64,000 bases of DNA, from contig OZ253462.1 of the NCBI GenBank assembly GCA_965261395.1, positions 3,584,001 through 3,648,000 on the forward strand, read 5' to 3'. Every line of letters begins with the position of its first letter. Within the stretch, counting starts at the first letter, position 1. Position numbers and translations under genes: made by a program. The DNA is from Candidatus Latescibacterota bacterium (GTDB lineage Bacteria > Latescibacterota > UBA2968 > UBA8231). Below, in pieces: positions 30,862 to 38,340 of this stretch. The notes under the pieces are model-generated. The model ran no database searches. It was not told the origin of the DNA and saw only the letters and a list, made by a program, of their open reading frames with translations.

Positions 30862-31227
30862 ATATCGACGATTCACAAGGCAGAAAGAGTCGTAACATGG
30901 GTTGGGGACTCGCTTGATCAAGTCCGCAGTTTTCCCCAACCCGCGAGAAGAACCATTGGTGAAGCTTTGCGTTTTGCTCAGTGGGGTACTAAACACCCGA
31001 AGGCAAAACCGTTGCAGGGGATTGGTCTAGGTATATTGGAGATTGTCGCCCGTTACGACACGGATACATACCGCGCCATTTATACTGTCAGAATCGGCAA
31101 GACCATCTATGTGCTTCATGCGTTTCAGAAGAAGTCCACTCGTGGTAGCAAAACTCCGAAGCAGGAAATTGACTTGATTAAACAGCGACTGAAGATAGCG
31201 CGATCGATGGAGACAAAAAATGAGTGA
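30862..31227 (+). CDS. RelE/ParE (Gp49-like) toxin, probable non-canonical ATA start
   Basis: Family-like N-terminus VVTWVGDSLDQVRSFP lies upstream of the TTG at 30967; DTYRAIYTV..IYVLHAFQKKS; SD AAAGGAG at 30844-30850. Confidence 0.8.
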   Translation: MSTIHKAERVVTWVGDSLDQVRSFPQPARRTIGEALRFAQWGTKHPKAKPLQGIGLGILEIVARYDTDTYRAIYTVRIGKTIYVLHAFQKKSTRGSKTPKQEIDLIKQRLKIARSMETKNE

Positions 31228-31549
31228 AGAAGTCAAATTCGAGCCAAGCTCTGGAAATGTGTTTAAGGACCTGGGATTCTCTAATGCGGAAGCTGAACGC
31301 GAACTGGTGAAGGCCGACCTCGCCTTGGCAATCTACAGCATCCTCAAAGAGCGCAAAATGACCCAGACAAAAGCCGGAGAAATCCTCGGCGTCAATCAGT
31401 CGGATGTATCGCGCTTGAAAAATGGTGATTTTGACCGCTTCAGTGTGGAGCGTCTGTTTGCGTTTCTCAATCGGCTCAATCGCAACGTCGAGATTCGCAT
31501 TACGTCGGCAGAAGATTTGCAGGGACACCAGCGAGTCGTTGCGGTATAG
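31220..31549 (+). CDS. XRE-HTH antitoxin (HigA2-like)
   Basis: SSGNVFKDLGF, MTQTKAGEILGVNQSDVSRL, FSVERL. Confidence 0.9.
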   Translation: MSEEVKFEPSSGNVFKDLGFSNAEAERELVKADLALAIYSILKERKMTQTKAGEILGVNQSDVSRLKNGDFDRFSVERLFAFLNRLNRNVEIRITSAEDLQGHQRVVAV

Positions 31550-31646: not shown

Positions 31647-31698
31647 TTGAGCAAAGAGGGCGATAATGGTATTGGTATCCAGTAGGTATCTACCATTC
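31647..31698 (-). pseudogene. VapC/PIN toxin 5' remnant split by the transposon
   Basis: Removing the element and one TSD restores ATG AAT GGT AGA TAC CTA CTG GAT ACC AAT = MNGRYLLDTNTIIALFAQ (ATG at 36165); PIN similarity is lost after ~18 codons. Confidence 0.75.
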
Positions 31699-31809
31699 GG
31701 TAGTGTCGCAGTTTGAAATCTGGCCTAAAACACCTGAATTATGGCACGCAGATTGCCTAGTTTCGGCGGATTGACTGGAATCACTGCCCAGTCCCTCCCA
31801 AGGACGAGC

Positions 31810-31872
31810 GGCGCGGATGTCTTGGGCATCCGCGCCGTTTTGCTTGACATCGGTCAATTCACTGTGTACTGT
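31810..31872 (+). promoter_or_regulatory. Hairpin plus sigma70 promoter inside transposon left end
   Basis: GGCGCGGATGTC-TTG-GGCATCCGCGCC-GTTTT, then TTGACA(31844)-17-TACTGT(31867). Confidence 0.65.
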
Positions 31873-31904: not shown

Positions 31905-32090
31905 ATGCCTAAAGGCCCTCAAGGACAGCGTCGTCCAGCCGATGCTGTCGGCTGTGCCGTTCAGGTGGCCCGCATCGCCACCGGCGAGGAACAGGAAGAT
32001 ACGCCTCAAAAGCAGCCTTCGACGCTCAAGCGTCTCCTAGACAAGGCCGCGCCCCTGTTCAAAAAGCCAGCCCATCAGAAAAACCGGTAG
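31905..32090 (+). CDS. Small basic protein MPKGPQGQRRPAD... (transposon accessory gene)
   Basis: SD GGAGG, own promoter, 61 aa; function unknown. Confidence 0.7.
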   Translation: MPKGPQGQRRPADAVGCAVQVARIATGEEQEDTPQKQPSTLKRLLDKAAPLFKKPAHQKNR

Positions 32091-32111: not shown

Positions 32112-32303
32112 TTATTCTTCTCGATCCCTGTTGGCGTCTGTCAAACTCTGGCGTTCCAACTCTTCCTTAACAAGCCAATGCAACGCTGCAACCGTGTCTT
32201 TCTCCAGCTCCAGCACATCCTTCAAGGCGGCGTTGTTGGGCATCATATTGCTTTTTCCGTGCCGAATAGCCTTGAGCAATTCGATAAGCTCCATATCCTT
32301 CAT
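32112..32303 (-). CDS. Hypothetical 63-aa protein (variable partner, cassette A)
   Basis: Strong SD AAGGAGGTG overlapping the stop of the 73-aa ORF. Confidence 0.65.
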   Translation of the reverse strand: MKDMELIELLKAIRHGKSNMMPNNAALKDVLELEKDTVAALHWLVKEELERQSLTDANRDREE

Positions 32304-32501
32304 CGTCTCACCTCCTTGCCAAGATGATTTTCGGTGTGCGAGCGATCTGCATGGAGCGGGAGAGGATTCGTTCCATCTCCATATAACGGTACATCTCCAC
32401 TTCCTCGCGGATCTGATTGCGTTCTTCTTGCAACTGGAGACACAAGTTCCACGATCCGGAGCCGGGCGGCTGCGGTATGCGTGGGGCTTGTTCTAGTTCG
32501 G
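32299..32501. repeat. 203-bp direct repeat, copy A
   Basis: One mismatch seen versus 34844-35046 (offset 2545). Confidence 0.92.
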
Positions 32502-32529
32502 GGGTAACAGTACTATTAGAATTGACCAT
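32308..32529 (-). CDS. Conserved 73-aa protein (cassette A)
   Basis: Paralog of 34853..35074; SD GAAGGGAG lies within a hairpin. Confidence 0.7.
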   Translation of the reverse strand: MVNSNSTVTPELEQAPRIPQPPGSGSWNLCLQLQEERNQIREEVEMYRYMEMERILSRSMQIARTPKIILARR

Positions 32530-32636
32530 CGAAGAGTCTCCCTTCGTTGGTTACGCCCGCCGCGCCCGCCAAAGACGCGAAAGGCTGGATAATGGCCCCT
32601 CTTCGATCCTGGAATCAGGAGTCGAAGAGGGGCCGA
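32523..32636 (+). ncRNA. Putative cis-antisense sRNA A (three stem-loops)
   Basis: TTGTTC(32488)-17-TACTAT(32511) embedded in the ORF; hairpins 32524-32552, 32555-32585, 32594-32634, structurally mirrored in copy B. Ends are estimates. Confidence 0.55.
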
Positions 32637-32650
32637 AGTATGACGGCGAG

Positions 32651-32679
32651 AACGTATGGGTCCCGCCCCGAGAAGTCAA
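32651..32679 (-). promoter_or_regulatory. Sense promoter of cassette A
   Basis: Minus strand TTGACT(32679-32674)-17-TACGTT(32656-32651). Confidence 0.55.
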
Positions 32680-32787
32680 CCCACTTCTGGTTGATGAATT
32701 TCTGCCATTAGGCATCTATCCTTTGGGACTTATATACTTGGCTACACAGTGAGAACTTGACGTTGGTACACTACCATTCCCTAAAGT

Positions 32788-33387
32788 TCAGCCGCAACCG
32801 GCATCCTCTCCGAAGTACACGGACTGGACGTGTTCAACGTAGGCTAAATCTTCTTTGTAGTATTCGTATCGCTCATATGCCCGTTTAAGTCTACTTTCTA
32901 AGTCGTTCCAGCATTGTTCTCCGCAATCTGTTCCTATCCATAACTCGTCCATTAGAGCCGATATTTCTTTCACTGCGCAAGCATATCGCTCGACCTTGTA
33001 CTGGGACGATTCAACTTCTCGAAATACAATCGTCTCTAGCGTTGTGTTGCAAAGAGGCTCATGGAAGAGTTCTTCAGGATCAAATATCCAAACTCTTTCT
33101 GACCGATCTTGGGGATTTCTTATCTCAGTATCGGTATAAACGACGATAGGAGGGGTGTAGTGGTCTCCGTGGCCCTCATAGTTGAAAAAAGTCCCATATT
33201 CACTGTCGATGTAATCTAAGAGTCTGAGATTCCCGCTTTCAGTAATGAATACGGCTTTTACCACCGTATCGAGAATAGCCGCTTCGCAGGGGAACTCTTG
33301 GGTTACTGGTTTAAGGGCCTCCTCGGAAGAGGTTGGAGGCCCTGCACGGCATCCTACAAAAGCGATGAGGAGAATAAATAAGCCCAT
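32788..33387 (-). CDS. Hypothetical lipoprotein-like protein; 5' end probably cut off by IS5 insertion
   Basis: Hydrophobic segment plus FVGC; in frame with 34583..34656 once the IS and one TSD are removed. Confidence 0.65.
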   Translation of the reverse strand: MGLFILLIAFVGCRAGPPTSSEEALKPVTQEFPCEAAILDTVVKAVFITESGNLRLLDYIDSEYGTFFNYEGHGDHYTPPIVVYTDTEIRNPQDRSERVWIFDPEELFHEPLCNTTLETIVFREVESSQYKVERYACAVKEISALMDELWIGTDCGEQCWNDLESRLKRAYERYEYYKEDLAYVEHVQSVYFGEDAGCG

Positions 33388-33397
33388 AGCTTTCTGT

Positions 33398-34582
33398 GGC
33401 TTTGTTGCATGAAAACCGGTCGGGGCCGTGTTGGCTTCTTTCGCGTGTGATTTACGCTTTTTTGGTTAGCGGATAGGACTCAGGTTTCGCCAACGCCCGC
33501 ATCCGGTTGAGCAAGGCACAGCCCAACCGCGCTTCGGTCTGTTGGTTGGTTAGGGTTCGGGTGCGCAAGGTGTCACCAAGTATCTGTTTGTAGCGGCCTA
33601 TCTGCGTTTCGGCTACCGAGCGTCGATGATAGCCGCTCTCGTGTTTCCAACCTCGACGGCCCCGTTTGCGGATGGCTCGAATCGTCTCATCGCGGGGCAA
33701 CGGCTCGGCGTTGGTGTTGCCATGTTGCTCGATTTTGGCGTCCTTGCGCGGCGGAATGATCGGATGAATAGGTGCCCCCTGCTCGGGCGCGGCCAACGCC
33801 TTGAACACCTTGCGTTTGTCATAGGCCCCATCGCCGCCCAACGCCTCCACGGGGGCCTCGATCTGTGCCAGCAACGGCTCCACCTGCCCCGCATCATCGT
33901 GGCTATTCGTCGTCAAGGTCTGCGCGACGATCTCGCCGGTGGCTTCATTAACCCCGAGGTGCAATTTGCGCCACGTGCGCCGCTTGCTCCAGCCGTGCTG
34001 ACGCACCTTCCATTCGCCTTCGCCATACACTTTCAGCCCGGTCGAATCCACCACCAAGTGCATCGGTTGGTCTCCCCGCTGGGGCGGCCACGCCACGGCT
34101 AAACCCGCCTGACGGCGCGACAGGGTCGTGTGATCGGGCACCCGCAGATCCAAGCCCATCAGGGCCAACACCGAAGCGACAAACCCCTCGGTTTGGCGTA
34201 GGGGCAAGTGATACAAAAGACGCAGCGTCAACGCCGTTTGGATGGCGACCTCCGAAAAGGTATATTGCGCCCCCCGCTGAGGCGGCCCTTGATAATACCA
34301 AGCTTCGACGGCCTGGGGCGTGAACCACACCGTCAGACTACCGCGCTGTTGCAGCCCGGCCTCATAGTCGGCCCAATTACGTACCCGGTACACGACGTTG
34401 GAGCGACGGCGAGGCGAGCGACCAGGCTTGACGGAAGAGGGGCAAGACGATAGGTTGGCCATGACAGGTTCCTTGGACGAGAAAGCATGGGTTTTTTGGC
34501 GAAAGTCGTGCTCAATCTACTGAGGAGCCTGTTTTTATTCAACCGATCAACCGAAAAAAACACCAATTCATGCACCAAAGCC
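33398..34582 (-). mobile_element. IS5-family (IS903 group) insertion sequence, 1185 bp
   Basis: 16-bp TIRs GGCTTTG(T/G)TGCATGAA (15/16 match); 9-bp TSD GCTTTCTGT (33389-33397; 34583-34591). Confidence 0.93.
33452..34462 (-). CDS. IS5/IS903-group DDE transposase
   Basis: YRVRNWADYEAGLQQRGSLTVW, VPDHTTLSRR, VDSTGLK, WRKLHL, DGAYD, GYHRRSVAET. Confidence 0.95.
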   Translation of the reverse strand: MANLSSCPSSVKPGRSPRRRSNVVYRVRNWADYEAGLQQRGSLTVWFTPQAVEAWYYQGPPQRGAQYTFSEVAIQTALTLRLLYHLPLRQTEGFVASVLALMGLDLRVPDHTTLSRRQAGLAVAWPPQRGDQPMHLVVDSTGLKVYGEGEWKVRQHGWSKRRTWRKLHLGVNEATGEIVAQTLTTNSHDDAGQVEPLLAQIEAPVEALGGDGAYDKRKVFKALAAPEQGAPIHPIIPPRKDAKIEQHGNTNAEPLPRDETIRAIRKRGRRGWKHESGYHRRSVAETQIGRYKQILGDTLRTRTLTNQQTEARLGCALLNRMRALAKPESYPLTKKA

Positions 34583-34656
34583 GCTTTCTGTTGGGAATAG
34601 TTAGACTTAGAGGGGATTAGCTTACCGTGATCGGCTAGATCCTTTATGATGGACAT
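34583..34656 (-). pseudogene. Detached 5' end (MSIIKDLADHGK...QQKA) of the 32788..33387 gene
   Basis: SD AAAGGA, ATG 3 nt after the upstream stop; frame joins GC|T ATG GGC across the TSD. Confidence 0.6.
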
Positions 34657-34659
34657 GGG

Positions 34660-34848
34660 TCAGTCCTTTCTTCGCGTGCGATTGAACTCGTCGATTCTAT
34701 CCTTCCACCTCAAGGTATAGCGAATGCGGACTAGATCTGAATCCTCTAATACTTCGGGATATGGCTCGCCAAGAGCCTTTGTCTCTTGGTAGAAACGATC
34801 TTCCTCAAGGTCTAATTCGATCCACTGCTTATCTGAAGAAATGTTCAT
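34660..34848 (-). CDS. Hypothetical 62-aa protein (variable partner, cassette B)
   Basis: Same SD/ATG context as 32112..32303 but unrelated sequence after ATGAA. Confidence 0.65.
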   Translation of the reverse strand: MNISSDKQWIELDLEEDRFYQETKALGEPYPEVLEDSDLVRIRYTLRWKDRIDEFNRTRRKD

Positions 34849-35046
34849 CGTCTCACCTCCTTGCCAAGATGATTTTCGGTGTGCGAGCGATCTGCATGGA
34901 GCGGGAGAGGATTCGTTCCATCTCCATATAACGGTACATCTCCACTTCCTCGCGGATCTGATTGCGTTCTTCTTGCAACTGGAGACACAAGTTCCACAAT
35001 CCGGAGCCGGGCGGCTGCGGTATGCGTGGGGCTTGTTCTAGTTCGG
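34844..35046. repeat. 203-bp direct repeat, copy B
   Basis: Matches 32299-32501. Confidence 0.92.
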
Positions 35047-35074
35047 AGGGAATGGTACTATTGTGAGTGGCCAT
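34853..35074 (-). CDS. Conserved 73-aa protein (cassette B)
   Basis: Differs from copy A only within the first 10 aa and at one internal residue. Confidence 0.7.
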   Translation of the reverse strand: MATHNSTIPSELEQAPRIPQPPGSGLWNLCLQLQEERNQIREEVEMYRYMEMERILSRSMQIARTPKIILARR

Positions 35075-35183
35075 TAGAAGAGTGTTCCTTCTATGGTTAC
35101 GCCCTCGGCGCTCTAGGCAAGCGCTTCAGGCAAAATATTGGAGGCCCCGCCTCAACTTTGGGATTGAATCAGCGGAGCCTCAT
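35068..35183 (+). ncRNA. Putative cis-antisense sRNA B (three stem-loops)
   Basis: TTGTTC(35033)-17-TACTAT(35056) with TG extension; hairpins 35069-35098, 35101-35131, 35141-35181. Ends are estimates. Confidence 0.55.
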
Positions 35184-35205
35184 ATAGTAACGCAACAACA
35201 CCAAA

Positions 35206-35234
35206 ATCATACTCGCCTAACCGATCCTCGTCAA
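35206..35234 (-). promoter_or_regulatory. Sense promoter of cassette B
   Basis: Minus strand TTGACG(35234-35229)-17-TATGAT(35211-35206). Confidence 0.65.
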
Positions 35235-35303
35235 GTCGTAAAATCCCTATTTCAAAGTGAAATTTTCTTGTATAAGTCGGTGTTTTTGCGTATATGATGA
35301 GGC

Positions 35304-36086
35304 ATGAACCGACTGCCTTTAGACAAGCGTCTCCTGCTTCTGAACATGCTGGTGGAAGGCTCGTCGATGCGGGCGATCAGCCGCGTGGCGGATGTGTCCA
35401 TTAACACGGTCTGCAAGATGCTCGCCGACGCGGGACCCGTCTGCGCCCGCTATCACGACGAGATGGTGCGCTCAATGGATGTGCGCCGGGTCGAAGTGGA
35501 TGAGGTGTGGTCGTTTTGCTATGCCAAGCAGAAGACGGTCAACCAAGCTCCCGATCTGCCAGACGGTGCCGGCGACGTATGGACGTGGACGGCGATTGAT
35601 GCCGACACCAAGCTGATGCTGGCCTACGAGGTCGGCGACCGCTCCTTAGACACGGGCTTGGAGTTTCTGGAGAATCTGCGCGAAAGGCTGGCGAGCCCGG
35701 TCCATTTGGCCGCGGACGGCTACAACGTCTATCTGTCCGCGGTTGAGCAGGTCTTCGGCGAGGAGGCCAAACACCTGCTACGAACCGAAGGCGAGTCCAC
35801 GTCCTACGTGGAGCGGCAAAACCTGACCATGCGCATGGGGATGCGGCGGTTTACCCGCAAGACCAACGGCTTCAGCAAAAGGCTGGAGCGCCATGTGAAT
35901 ATGCTGTCGCTGTACTTCGTGCATTACAACTTCGTCCGAATCCATTCTTCGCTTAGGATGCCCCCGGCGATGGCCGCTGGGCTGACGGACACGCTTCACG
36001 ATATGGAGTGGCTGGCCGAGATGATCGAGGCTGGACTGCCCAAGCCGCAAAGACCCAAGAAATATCGCCCCCGAACCGCAAACTAA
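35304..36086 (+). CDS. IS1-family transposase (single ORF, HTH + DDE)
   Basis: LVEGSSMRAISRVADVSINTV HTH; VEVDEVWSF, WTWTAIDADTKL, AADG, TSYVERQNLTMR..RRFTRKTNGFSK. Confidence 0.9.
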   Translation: MNRLPLDKRLLLLNMLVEGSSMRAISRVADVSINTVCKMLADAGPVCARYHDEMVRSMDVRRVEVDEVWSFCYAKQKTVNQAPDLPDGAGDVWTWTAIDADTKLMLAYEVGDRSLDTGLEFLENLRERLASPVHLAADGYNVYLSAVEQVFGEEAKHLLRTEGESTSYVERQNLTMRMGMRRFTRKTNGFSKRLERHVNMLSLYFVHYNFVRIHSSLRMPPAMAAGLTDTLHDMEWLAEMIEAGLPKPQRPKKYRPRTAN

Positions 36087-36154
36087 AAGTCCCCTTGGCA
36101 ACAACCGTGCCAAGAGAACTTTTTTCAGCCTCCAATTTCAAACTGCGACACTAC

Positions 36155-37024
36155 CTACCATTCATCGGGATCTACGCTTTCGCAATCGGCTTGGATCGCT
36201 TCAGCCATCTTGTCCAAGTCTTCTCTATCTATTGTTCCTGCAAAGCGCAGCAGAGTCTTGCCGGACGCGCCTTCCATCTCGGACTTTGCTAACGAACGAA
36301 CGAATTCCAGGACCTCCGCTTGTTGGCCTTTTCCCAATTTATGGATCTCATCAAGAATTTCTTTTTCTATAGACGTATCTTTCATTTTCAGCCCGTGTTC
36401 ACGAGTTATACATGGCTGATCGGGCGATAGACGCGGGTTTTGTCCGATCCATGCGCTCACGAGTTCTGCAATCCTCGCTGGCATCAGGACGCGCAACCCA
36501 ACGAACTCGTCGAGGTCAGCAGGAGAGAGCTTGCTCGCAATCGCGCCGAGGTTCTCTTCAATCTCTCCCAACCAAGCGAGGGCGCGAATCGCATCGCCGG
36601 CTGGCCGGTGCGGTGCTACCAACTGCCAGCGCGGGGCATGGCGCAAATGCACTGTCAGGGCACCGAGTTTCAACCGACGACTGGGGCCAGAGGTCAGGTA
36701 CACCGACCGCACCGGCGTCTGAGTAGTGAGACCGAGGAAGTTCGCCGCCGCACCGCCACAGGGAACAATGGTCTCCCCCCACAGTTCCGCCAGCGCTTCA
36801 ATGACCTTCTCAACCGCGGGTGGGCGCAGACCGAAGCGAGTCTCTATAGGCCGGACATAGACGCCCTGACAGACCCGCATTAATTGTCCACGACGTGCGA
36901 GGCGCGACAGTGCTTGATCGACTGTCGCTCTGCTTCCGAGATGGAGCAACGCCCTTGGGCACAATAGCGATCCCTCGGGCAGTTCGGCGGCGCGTTGGGC
37001 GATGTGCTGAGATAGGCTTGGCAT
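36155..37024 (-). CDS. DUF6088/AbiEi-like type IV antitoxin, in frame with a 76-aa VapB/DUF2281-like antitoxin (36155..36385)
   Basis: GSRATVDQALSRLARRGQLMRVCQGVY, AANFLGLTTQTP..VYLTSGPSR; then MKDTSIEKEILDEIHKL...QAEVLEFVRSL...VDPDEW with no intervening stop. Confidence 0.75.
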   Translation of the reverse strand: MPSLSQHIAQRAAELPEGSLLCPRALLHLGSRATVDQALSRLARRGQLMRVCQGVYVRPIETRFGLRPPAVEKVIEALAELWGETIVPCGGAAANFLGLTTQTPVRSVYLTSGPSRRLKLGALTVHLRHAPRWQLVAPHRPAGDAIRALAWLGEIEENLGAIASKLSPADLDEFVGLRVLMPARIAELVSAWIGQNPRLSPDQPCITREHGLKMKDTSIEKEILDEIHKLGKGQQAEVLEFVRSLAKSEMEGASGKTLLRFAGTIDREDLDKMAEAIQADCESVDPDEW

Positions 37025-37085
37025 GGTCGTATCCATCGGTATAATGTCAGAAATATAGCGTAGAAACTGACTTAAACAAGGAGAG

Positions 37086-37128
37086 GATTGACATATTGCA
37101 ACGAGGATATGCCTTTCGCCCGGCAGCA

Positions 37129-37140
<12 letters not shown>
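37086..37140. repeat. Right copy of 55-bp island-bounding repeat (includes rlmI stop codon)
   Basis: 45/55 identical to 30693-30747; minus-strand TTGATG-17-TATCCT. Confidence 0.8.

Positions 37141-38340
<1,200 letters not shown>

Follow-up and report, generated by a model that had tools for sequence, protein, structure and literature searches.

Within a 64,000-nucleotide (nt) stretch of the genome of Candidatus Latescibacterota bacterium (the window; contig OZ253462.1, positions 3,584,001 to 3,648,000), a 4,457-bp cargo element of the IS1 family of insertion sequences (IS) holds two copies, A and B, of an uncatalogued RNA module that is borne by insertion sequences and exists in nine or more loop alleles. 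We propose that this ~200-nt module, which lies mostly inside insertion sequences, makes an antisense RNA that pairs with the module's own leader and blocks translation, a reading to which we assign a probability of roughly 0.66. Observed directly are a three-hairpin scaffold found in 12 copies ahead of largely unrelated open reading frames (ORFs), the divergence of its loops, and an overlap between the stop codon of the first ORF and the start codon of the next gene in 5/11 copies. Each module consists of a promoter-like site, three stem-loops (SL3, SL2 and SL1), an AUG in the last of these, and an opposite-strand promoter-like site in the first codons. In the window, the minus-strand cargo order of promoter, SL3, SL2, SL1, 73-codon ORF and small gene occurs twice over, with the following leader features:

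32651..32679, minus strand: predicted sense promoter A, TTGACT-17-TACGTT
32594..32634: SL3-A, 41 nt, a near-perfect 18-bp hairpin of -34.4 kcal/mol
32555..32585: SL2-A, 31 nt, minus-strand loop UUUGGCG (which includes UUGGCG)
32524..32552: SL1-A; on the minus strand its loop holds the ribosome site and its stem the AUG; 7-nt loop AGTCTCC
32488..32516, plus strand: predicted antisense promoter A, TTGTTC-17-TACTAT, within codons 5-14; predicted RNA ~32523-32640
32308..32529, minus strand: leader ORF A, 73 codons, AUG in the 3' arm of SL1
35206..35234, minus strand: predicted sense promoter B, TTGACG-17-TATGAT
35141..35181: SL3-B, 41 nt; the minus (mRNA) strand folds better, -23.4 versus -15.8
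35101..35131: SL2-B, 31 nt, minus-strand loop UGCCUAG
35069..35098: SL1-B, 7-nt loop AGTGTTC
35033..35061, plus strand: predicted antisense promoter B, TTGTTC-17-TACTAT; predicted RNA ~35068-35187
34853..35074, minus strand: leader ORF B, 73 codons

Copies A and B carry two different leaders over a near-identical core. The core is 202/203 identical (32299-32501 versus 34844-35046, with the lone difference at 32453/34998), and beyond it 10 mismatches fall within the next 29 nt. The three hairpins stand at matching positions with different loops: SL1 presents distinct 7-nt loops over the ribosome site, SL2 is 18/31 identical, and SL3 is identical at 14/41 positions in an ungapped comparison. These counts bear out the original prediction, made from the letters of the window alone, of a leader that keeps its structure and hairpin lengths but has diverged in sequence over a 202/203-identical ORF body. 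Two of its details did not hold. The inner stems of SL2 had been called different, but the two copies are in the same register about GCG/CGC, which is flanked on both sides by changed pairs; and TGGTTACGCCC, described as an invariant linker, consists mostly of paired arms of SL1 and SL2 and is variable in the wider family.

Predicted folding of the 134-139-nt leader segments is better than that of shuffled controls, as the claimed structure implies, with z-scores of -5.8 (plus strand) and -6.5 (minus strand) for A and -2.4 and -3.5 for B. Among 150 random 134-nt genome windows, 7 reach -2.4, 1 reaches -3.5 and none reaches -5.7. Without SL3, the minus-strand z-score of SL1 plus SL2 is -3.6 in A and B alike. 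SL3-A is a candidate for both the 3' hairpin of the antisense RNA and the 5' hairpin of the mRNA. The core gave no folding signal (z -0.8 to +0.5) and was rejected as a structured RNA. By eye, the SL2 loop of B could pair in a pseudoknot-like manner with a stretch before the second ribosome site (9/10 nt), and A has a 9-nt SL3/SL1 pairing; each is seen in one copy only.

Covariance-model searches of related genomes revealed 10 further full copies. The first model (R2), which covered SL2, SL1 and codons 1-15 and was derived solely from A and B, found three of them (L058, L059 and L060), and a model from five sequences (R3) found seven more (L079-L084 and L086), with matches in 8/76 genomes of the family at E<=0.1 plus L084 (E 0.25) and L086 (E 0.21). 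Full three-hairpin modules thus number 12 copies in 9 genomes, all of a single bacterial family, and form 9 alleles when the near-duplicates L058/L059 and L083/L084/L086 are merged; the source genome (G000) has three alleles and G022 has two. Ten of the 12 copies have IS1-type ends or IS1/IS1595 transposases around or beside them. Beyond the family, R3 returned one match in 86 genomes of the phylum (L085, rejected), none in four unrelated genomes and none in 150 genomes of another phylum, all weak negatives because of strict filters and the five-sequence model. Rfam returned no match at its gathering threshold and none on the module at E<=10 or E<=5 in the window and 15 other loci. BLAST-type DNA searches of 61 relatives and 168 phylum genomes yielded short chance matches only; 72,556 plasmid records yielded no match; a phage search, one 37-nt chance match only; a 19-mer scan of GTDB, 11 matches, none extending past ~30 nt; and five viral scans, 0, 0, 1, 13 and 0 matches, all chance on inspection. 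An SL3 pattern search was discarded as unspecific (146/168 genomes, with controls alike). A literature search, which did not cover subscription journals and supplements, found no description of the module.

Five candidates were left out of the 12. In L057, from the source genome itself, SL1 and the antisense site are real, but what looks like SL2 belongs to the 5' end of a group II intron inserted there; L061 and L062 are of the L057 type, without SL2 and SL3; and L085 and L087 were rejected for lack of the scaffold. The truncated relative (L057:1500-2340, at ~6272040 of G000, L061 and L062) places SL1 and its embedded opposite-strand promoter before a 183-aa (amino acid) orphan ORF in three genomes, and the intron of L057 is ORF-less, lies on the opposite strand and sits ~50 nt upstream of the AUG. 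A 1-kb non-autonomous IS1-type element (L006:5213-6240), flanked by an additional ~45-nt inverted repeat, holds only the last ~95 nt of the core, namely the ribosome site and a 26-codon mini-ORF, 93% identical, before a different Cys-containing gene. The third full module of the source genome, L084, lies upstream of a DUF4926-SNF2 helicase fusion gene in a 17-kb stretch between IS1-type repeats (L088:1067-18307; G000 ~6399066-6416306). IS1/IS1595 cargo also contains a second recurring structured leader, marked by GTCGGG..GCTGAATA and GGTGAATAGG, at L026:~560-800, L029:~60-230, L030:~590-820, L032:~560-790, L037:~2290-2500 and L076:6040-6200. It mostly precedes exported or membrane proteins and has no Rfam match; in L060/L076 it comes after the three-hairpin module, and the leader ORF of that module ends inside it.

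Pairing changes among the homologs support the scaffold. Pairing at the two SL2 positions above the core of that stem is kept in 12/12 and 11/12 copies and shows four base-pair types at each position, in counts that are anchor-based (the GCG/CGC and CCA/UG anchors were used for alignment). The upper stem of SL1 alternates between A-U and G-C across alleles (the automatic anchor misplaces this stem in L081 and L082), and the loops differ among alleles. A model-fitted covariation count was set aside, as it was inflated by a register shift in L058/L059. Both strands fold across the family (z -2.3 to -7.0 sense and -2.7 to -6.0 antisense), and stem-loops with kept stems and variable loops, which characterize cis-antisense regulators, are found on both. 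Pairing of the Shine-Dalgarno (SD) sequence with its anti-SD partner ranges from -4.7 to -10.2 in 12/12 copies. In a matrix that took in 10/12 copies, cognate RNAs have a predicted duplex gain of -151 to -175 kcal/mol and RNAs of different alleles one of -3 to -41, and a same-allele control (L083/L084) gives -131/-136 kcal/mol. Nine alleles with different loops on a kept scaffold, these energies and an opposite-strand promoter-like site within ORFs that are otherwise unrelated lend independent support to the earlier reading of antisense control with divergence in the loops; its division into two specificity groups fails, since the alleles number nine or more.

When codons 2-22 were scored for promoter-like sites on the opposite strand, the best site had 17-nt spacing in 12/12 copies. 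This site, weak in two alleles, lies within the first 16 codons in 9/9, and its -10 box ends 13-19 nt past the first base of the AUG, a position from which a transcript would begin at SL1 or slightly ahead of it and cross SL1, SL2 and SL3. Its score exceeds that of 97% of 3263 genome ORF starts, a control GC-richer than the cargo DNA, in 7/9 alleles; 6/9 alleles pass at 5% against composition-matched shuffles, with the score equalled in 2-43/1000 of them. The site occurs at four offsets from the AUG, and in L060, L079, L080 and the L083 type its -35 box lies beyond the stretch scored by the model (TTG in 3/4, CTG in 1/4). Between L083 and L084/L086 it is kept despite a one-base shift that alters frame and peptide, which argues that the DNA signal, not the peptide, is conserved. 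Across seven relatives of the 73-aa protein, E13 and Q14 (under the -35 box) and S6 (under the -10 box) are invariant, and the spacer codons 8-11 vary. On the sense side, a TTG-type -35 box with 16-17-nt spacing lies upstream in 12/12 copies (weak for L080), and a hairpin of -19 to -36 kcal/mol stands directly upstream of the modelled part in 12/12; SL3 and the sense promoter lie outside both R2 and R3. In a random control, the best 63-nt fold reaches -24 in 180/2000 windows and -30 in 19/2000.

ORFs that start in SL1 are 21-118 aa long and mostly unrelated across copies, so the conserved unit is the leader and not the ORF. The first ORF is longer than 95% of shuffles in 8/11 copies, and the first ORFs tested had no Pfam match. 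Genes further downstream encode an AAA ATPase (coupled through an ATGA overlap), a HipA-like kinase, a DNA methylase and orphans. In the window, the passengers are as follows:

32112..32303, minus strand: 63-aa orphan passenger behind A; its ribosome site (32308-32317) contains the leader-ORF stop codon
34660..34848, minus strand: 62-aa orphan passenger behind B, unrelated to the 63-aa gene; its ribosome site likewise contains the stop codon of its leader ORF
32788..33387, minus strand: orphan exported/lipoprotein-like passenger of operon B, split by an IS5 insertion near its 5' end (5' part at 34583-34656)

The 73-aa ORF was rejected as a protein family: it has 6 near-identical relatives, and it forms one cluster among 1.84 billion representatives with 5 repeat-type partial matches and no Atlas match. 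One relative (P0006) ends in a different frame, and 4/4 core substitutions checked from sequencing runs X6 and X8 are non-synonymous. The predicted model of the 73-aa protein is a plain, confident long helix, and the 63-aa protein is predicted as two helices with a predicted template modelling score (pTM) of 0.47. The leader plus predicted antisense promoter is the family-wide conserved unit, and the ORF body shared by A and B is a local duplication. The 203-nt identity is best read as one leader-ORF body recently duplicated, or copied by gene conversion, beneath two leader alleles. In run X6 the core forms a single contig with ~2x the depth of its flanks and 3 substitutions, which fits A and B changing together, contig depth being weak evidence. 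The same run leaves leader A uncovered and has a joint 32512>32725 with ambiguous letters between, which deletion and replacement fit equally.

In the mechanism that we propose, both strands would be transcribed, and an antisense RNA of likely 115-130 nt would run from the opposite-strand site and engage its own leader through loop-loop pairing. Repression of the leader ORF may then be passed to the next passenger by translational coupling where stop and start overlap. Loop divergence would limit cross-talk between co-resident alleles, so several elements in one cell would regulate their cargo independently. Each antisense RNA would silence the passenger of its own copy and probably spare those of the others.

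The proposed kind of control resembles known antisense systems, and the module itself belongs to none of them. IS10 RNA-OUT/RNA-IN and IS200 art200/tnpA are IS-encoded cis-antisense RNAs directed at the transposase (PMC4513863). Like these, the module has an SD-sequestering leader hairpin and a predicted IS-encoded cis-antisense RNA across the translation start, which would pair from its loops and act in trans on like copies (PMC4513863). In contrast to IS10 and IS200, the predicted RNA overlaps the leader of a passenger operon and not the transposase, whose start lies >100 nt beyond SL3-B, and the module has three hairpins, many loop alleles, an occurrence common to IS1- and IS1595-type elements, and no Rfam match. 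With symE/SymR of E. coli it shares an antisense promoter in the first codons of the target ORF and an RNA over the mRNA 5' end, both of them predicted here (PMC1891008). Unlike symE/SymR, it lacks a SymE/MazE-like protein or conserved ORF, and the only SymR sequence match (E 1.7) falls on a different hairpin.

Allele-diversified antisense control is a hallmark of plasmid replication and transfer in the papers compared here. Plasmid copy-control RNAs such as ColIb-P9 Inc/RLP/repZ and I-complex RNAI likewise combine an antisense RNA (here predicted) over a structured leader, a leader ORF coupled to the next gene, and specificity set by loops (PMC4705826, PMC10724649), with internal loops in the upper stems (PMC3753616). 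An exact UUGGCG loop, a possible further likeness, is present in copy A only. The paper on the Inc RNA of ColIb-P9 reportedly names this motif in its title. Unlike Inc, RNAI and R1 CopA/tap, however, the module is chromosomal IS cargo without a rep gene or origin, no conserved pseudoknot partner was found, and the coupled genes beside it are orphans or an AAA ATPase, not rep. The original prediction had likened the system to plasmid incompatibility; no replication gene adjoins the module, so it is not a plasmid incompatibility system. FinP/traJ resembles it in a stem-loop antisense RNA, here predicted, that pairs over the ribosome site via kissing loops (PMC9977716), and differs in that no traJ or transfer region accompanies the module. 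The source genome gave no FinO/ProQ-domain match. In phages, P1 c4-icd-ant, P4 CI and P22 sar similarly act through RNA on a short leader ORF to which a downstream gene is coupled. Unlike these, the module has no Rfam c4/sar match, the ORFs tested have no PHROG match, and the viral scans gave no true match.

Several results weigh against this mechanism. A coupled downstream start was not found in 6/11 copies, and in the DNA examined neither an IS end nor a transposase adjoins L082 or L083. The A/B cross duplex is still favourable (-23/-24 kcal/mol), and orthogonal specificity, as the first reading had it, is itself a prediction from duplex energies. The YUNR U-turn motif is unconserved (sense SL2 loop 4/12, antisense 5/12), and UUGGCG is confined to 1/9 alleles. 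Invariance of the anchors is circular because they were used to align. The promoter score takes its weights from E. coli consensus values (sigma-70-like), composition-matched shuffles equal the opposite-strand score in 261/1000 cases for L060, 355/1000 for L081 and 69/1000 for L082, and the GC-richer genome control makes combined p-values optimistic. A U-tract after SL3 on the antisense strand is clear only in L080 and the L083 type. Finally, in the one RNA run examined (X8; contigs only, unstranded) the 98% piece spans 34825-35007, over the core and outside the hairpins.

A leader that acts only in cis, in which SL3 shields the mRNA 5' end and SL1 hides the ribosome site to keep passenger translation low, would make the opposite-strand site incidental. 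This would fit the better folding of SL2 and SL3 of A and B on the mRNA strand, the sequestration of SD and AUG in SL1 in 12/12 copies, the lack of a clear antisense terminator, and the report that IS200 mRNA structure acts independently of its antisense RNA (PMC4513863). We nevertheless consider it unlikely, since it explains neither the near-complete turnover of the loops nor a 17-nt-spaced opposite-strand site that recurs at four offsets in unrelated ORFs and survives a frame change. The leader could also be a ligand- or protein-sensing switch, riboswitch-like or an attenuator, given its conserved multiple hairpins and own promoter upstream of an SD. Its conserved bases lie nearly all in stems, though, and its loops vary freely; the sense strand has no U-tract terminator before the AUG; and the downstream genes (AAA ATPase, HipA-like, DNA methylase, orphans) share no common pathway, with no Rfam match, which together make such a switch highly improbable.

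The layout, with a predicted antisense promoter embedded in coding sequence as described for symE/symR (PMC1891008), and the location on mobile elements would also suit a type I toxin-antitoxin system of the SymE/SymR kind, in which the first ORF is the effector, the antisense RNA is the antitoxin, and the element is stabilised. Some first ORFs are protein-like (81 and 118 aa), and the 73-aa product has a confidently predicted long helix. Yet the first ORFs are mostly unrelated orphans, most by eye without a hydrophobic segment, and no conserved toxic protein (hydrophobic peptide or SymE fold) or family match was found among them. The frame shifts among L083/L084/L086, the different end frame of P0006 and the non-synonymous core substitutions also speak against an effector, and we regard this explanation as quite unlikely. 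Even less credible is that the hairpins are by-products of tandem duplication, decayed terminators or foldbacks with no shared function. SL3-A is indeed a near-perfect inverted repeat with 9 nt in common with SL1-A, as template switching could yield, but 9 alleles from 9 genomes repeat one arrangement, from the order and spacing of its parts to the place of the SD and AUG and the two promoter-like sites, with compensatory pairs, and the family evidence largely refutes this account.

Beyond antisense control of the module's own leader, we tentatively entertain a wider view that we think may well be wrong: the alleles would form a library of orthogonal antisense switches traded among IS1/IS1595-type transposons as a plug-in front end, each element with a private address. 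Cargo would fire briefly on entering a cell without the allele, or after loss of the element, and then be silenced. The module would bring along two promoters and a disposable leader ORF and could be fused to almost any passenger, such as a defence ATPase, HipA-like proteins, methylases or exported proteins.

Apart from that wider view, one uncatalogued RNA scaffold is apparently reused across two IS families to control unrelated passengers, with at most three alleles per chromosome. If this reuse is real, small transposons dose risky cargo independently of one another, and the nine natural loop variants on one scaffold are ready candidates for orthogonal RNA regulators.

The host element has the marks of the IS1 family: an IS1 DDE transposase, inverted repeats, a target duplication within the 8-9-bp norm, and an empty site, seen as the joint 31689>36155 in sequencing runs X6 and X10. 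Its remaining features are:

31691..31698 (left) and 36156-36163 (right): target-site duplication, 8 bp
31699..31719, plus strand: left terminal inverted repeat, 21 nt, 100% complementary to 36135-36155
36135..36155, minus strand: right terminal inverted repeat
35304..36086, plus strand: IS1-family transposase, divergent from the cargo; PF03400 above cut-off
31905..32090, plus strand: small ORF (61 aa) belonging to the element, in convergent orientation to the cargo operon
33398..34582, minus strand: IS5-family insertion with a 9-bp target duplication and ~20 near-identical genome copies, outside the module

The transposase scores 88 bits against NF033558, under its cut-off of 100. An IS5-free form is present in run X6 (joint 33388>34583), and the runs containing parts of the element carry coral or sponge metagenome labels. 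The 61-aa ORF has no match in Pfam, NCBIfam or PHROG; by eye, a similar ORF is present in the sister elements L025 and L030. Its promoter region (31852-31872) resembles the start of leader ORF A (32507-32527) in inverted orientation at 16/21 nt, and a joint in run X7 (31870>32092) bypasses the ORF. The tail of the inverted repeat has an inner copy, ATTTCAAA, at 35245-35255, just upstream of the transposase promoter; this copy also occurs in L032 and is possibly a site of transposase autoregulation. The element is inserted between a Gp49/HigB-like and helix-turn-helix toxin-antitoxin pair and an AbiEi/DUF6088-type gene region (30967-31549; 36155-37312), and this region is a local accessory-gene hot spot.

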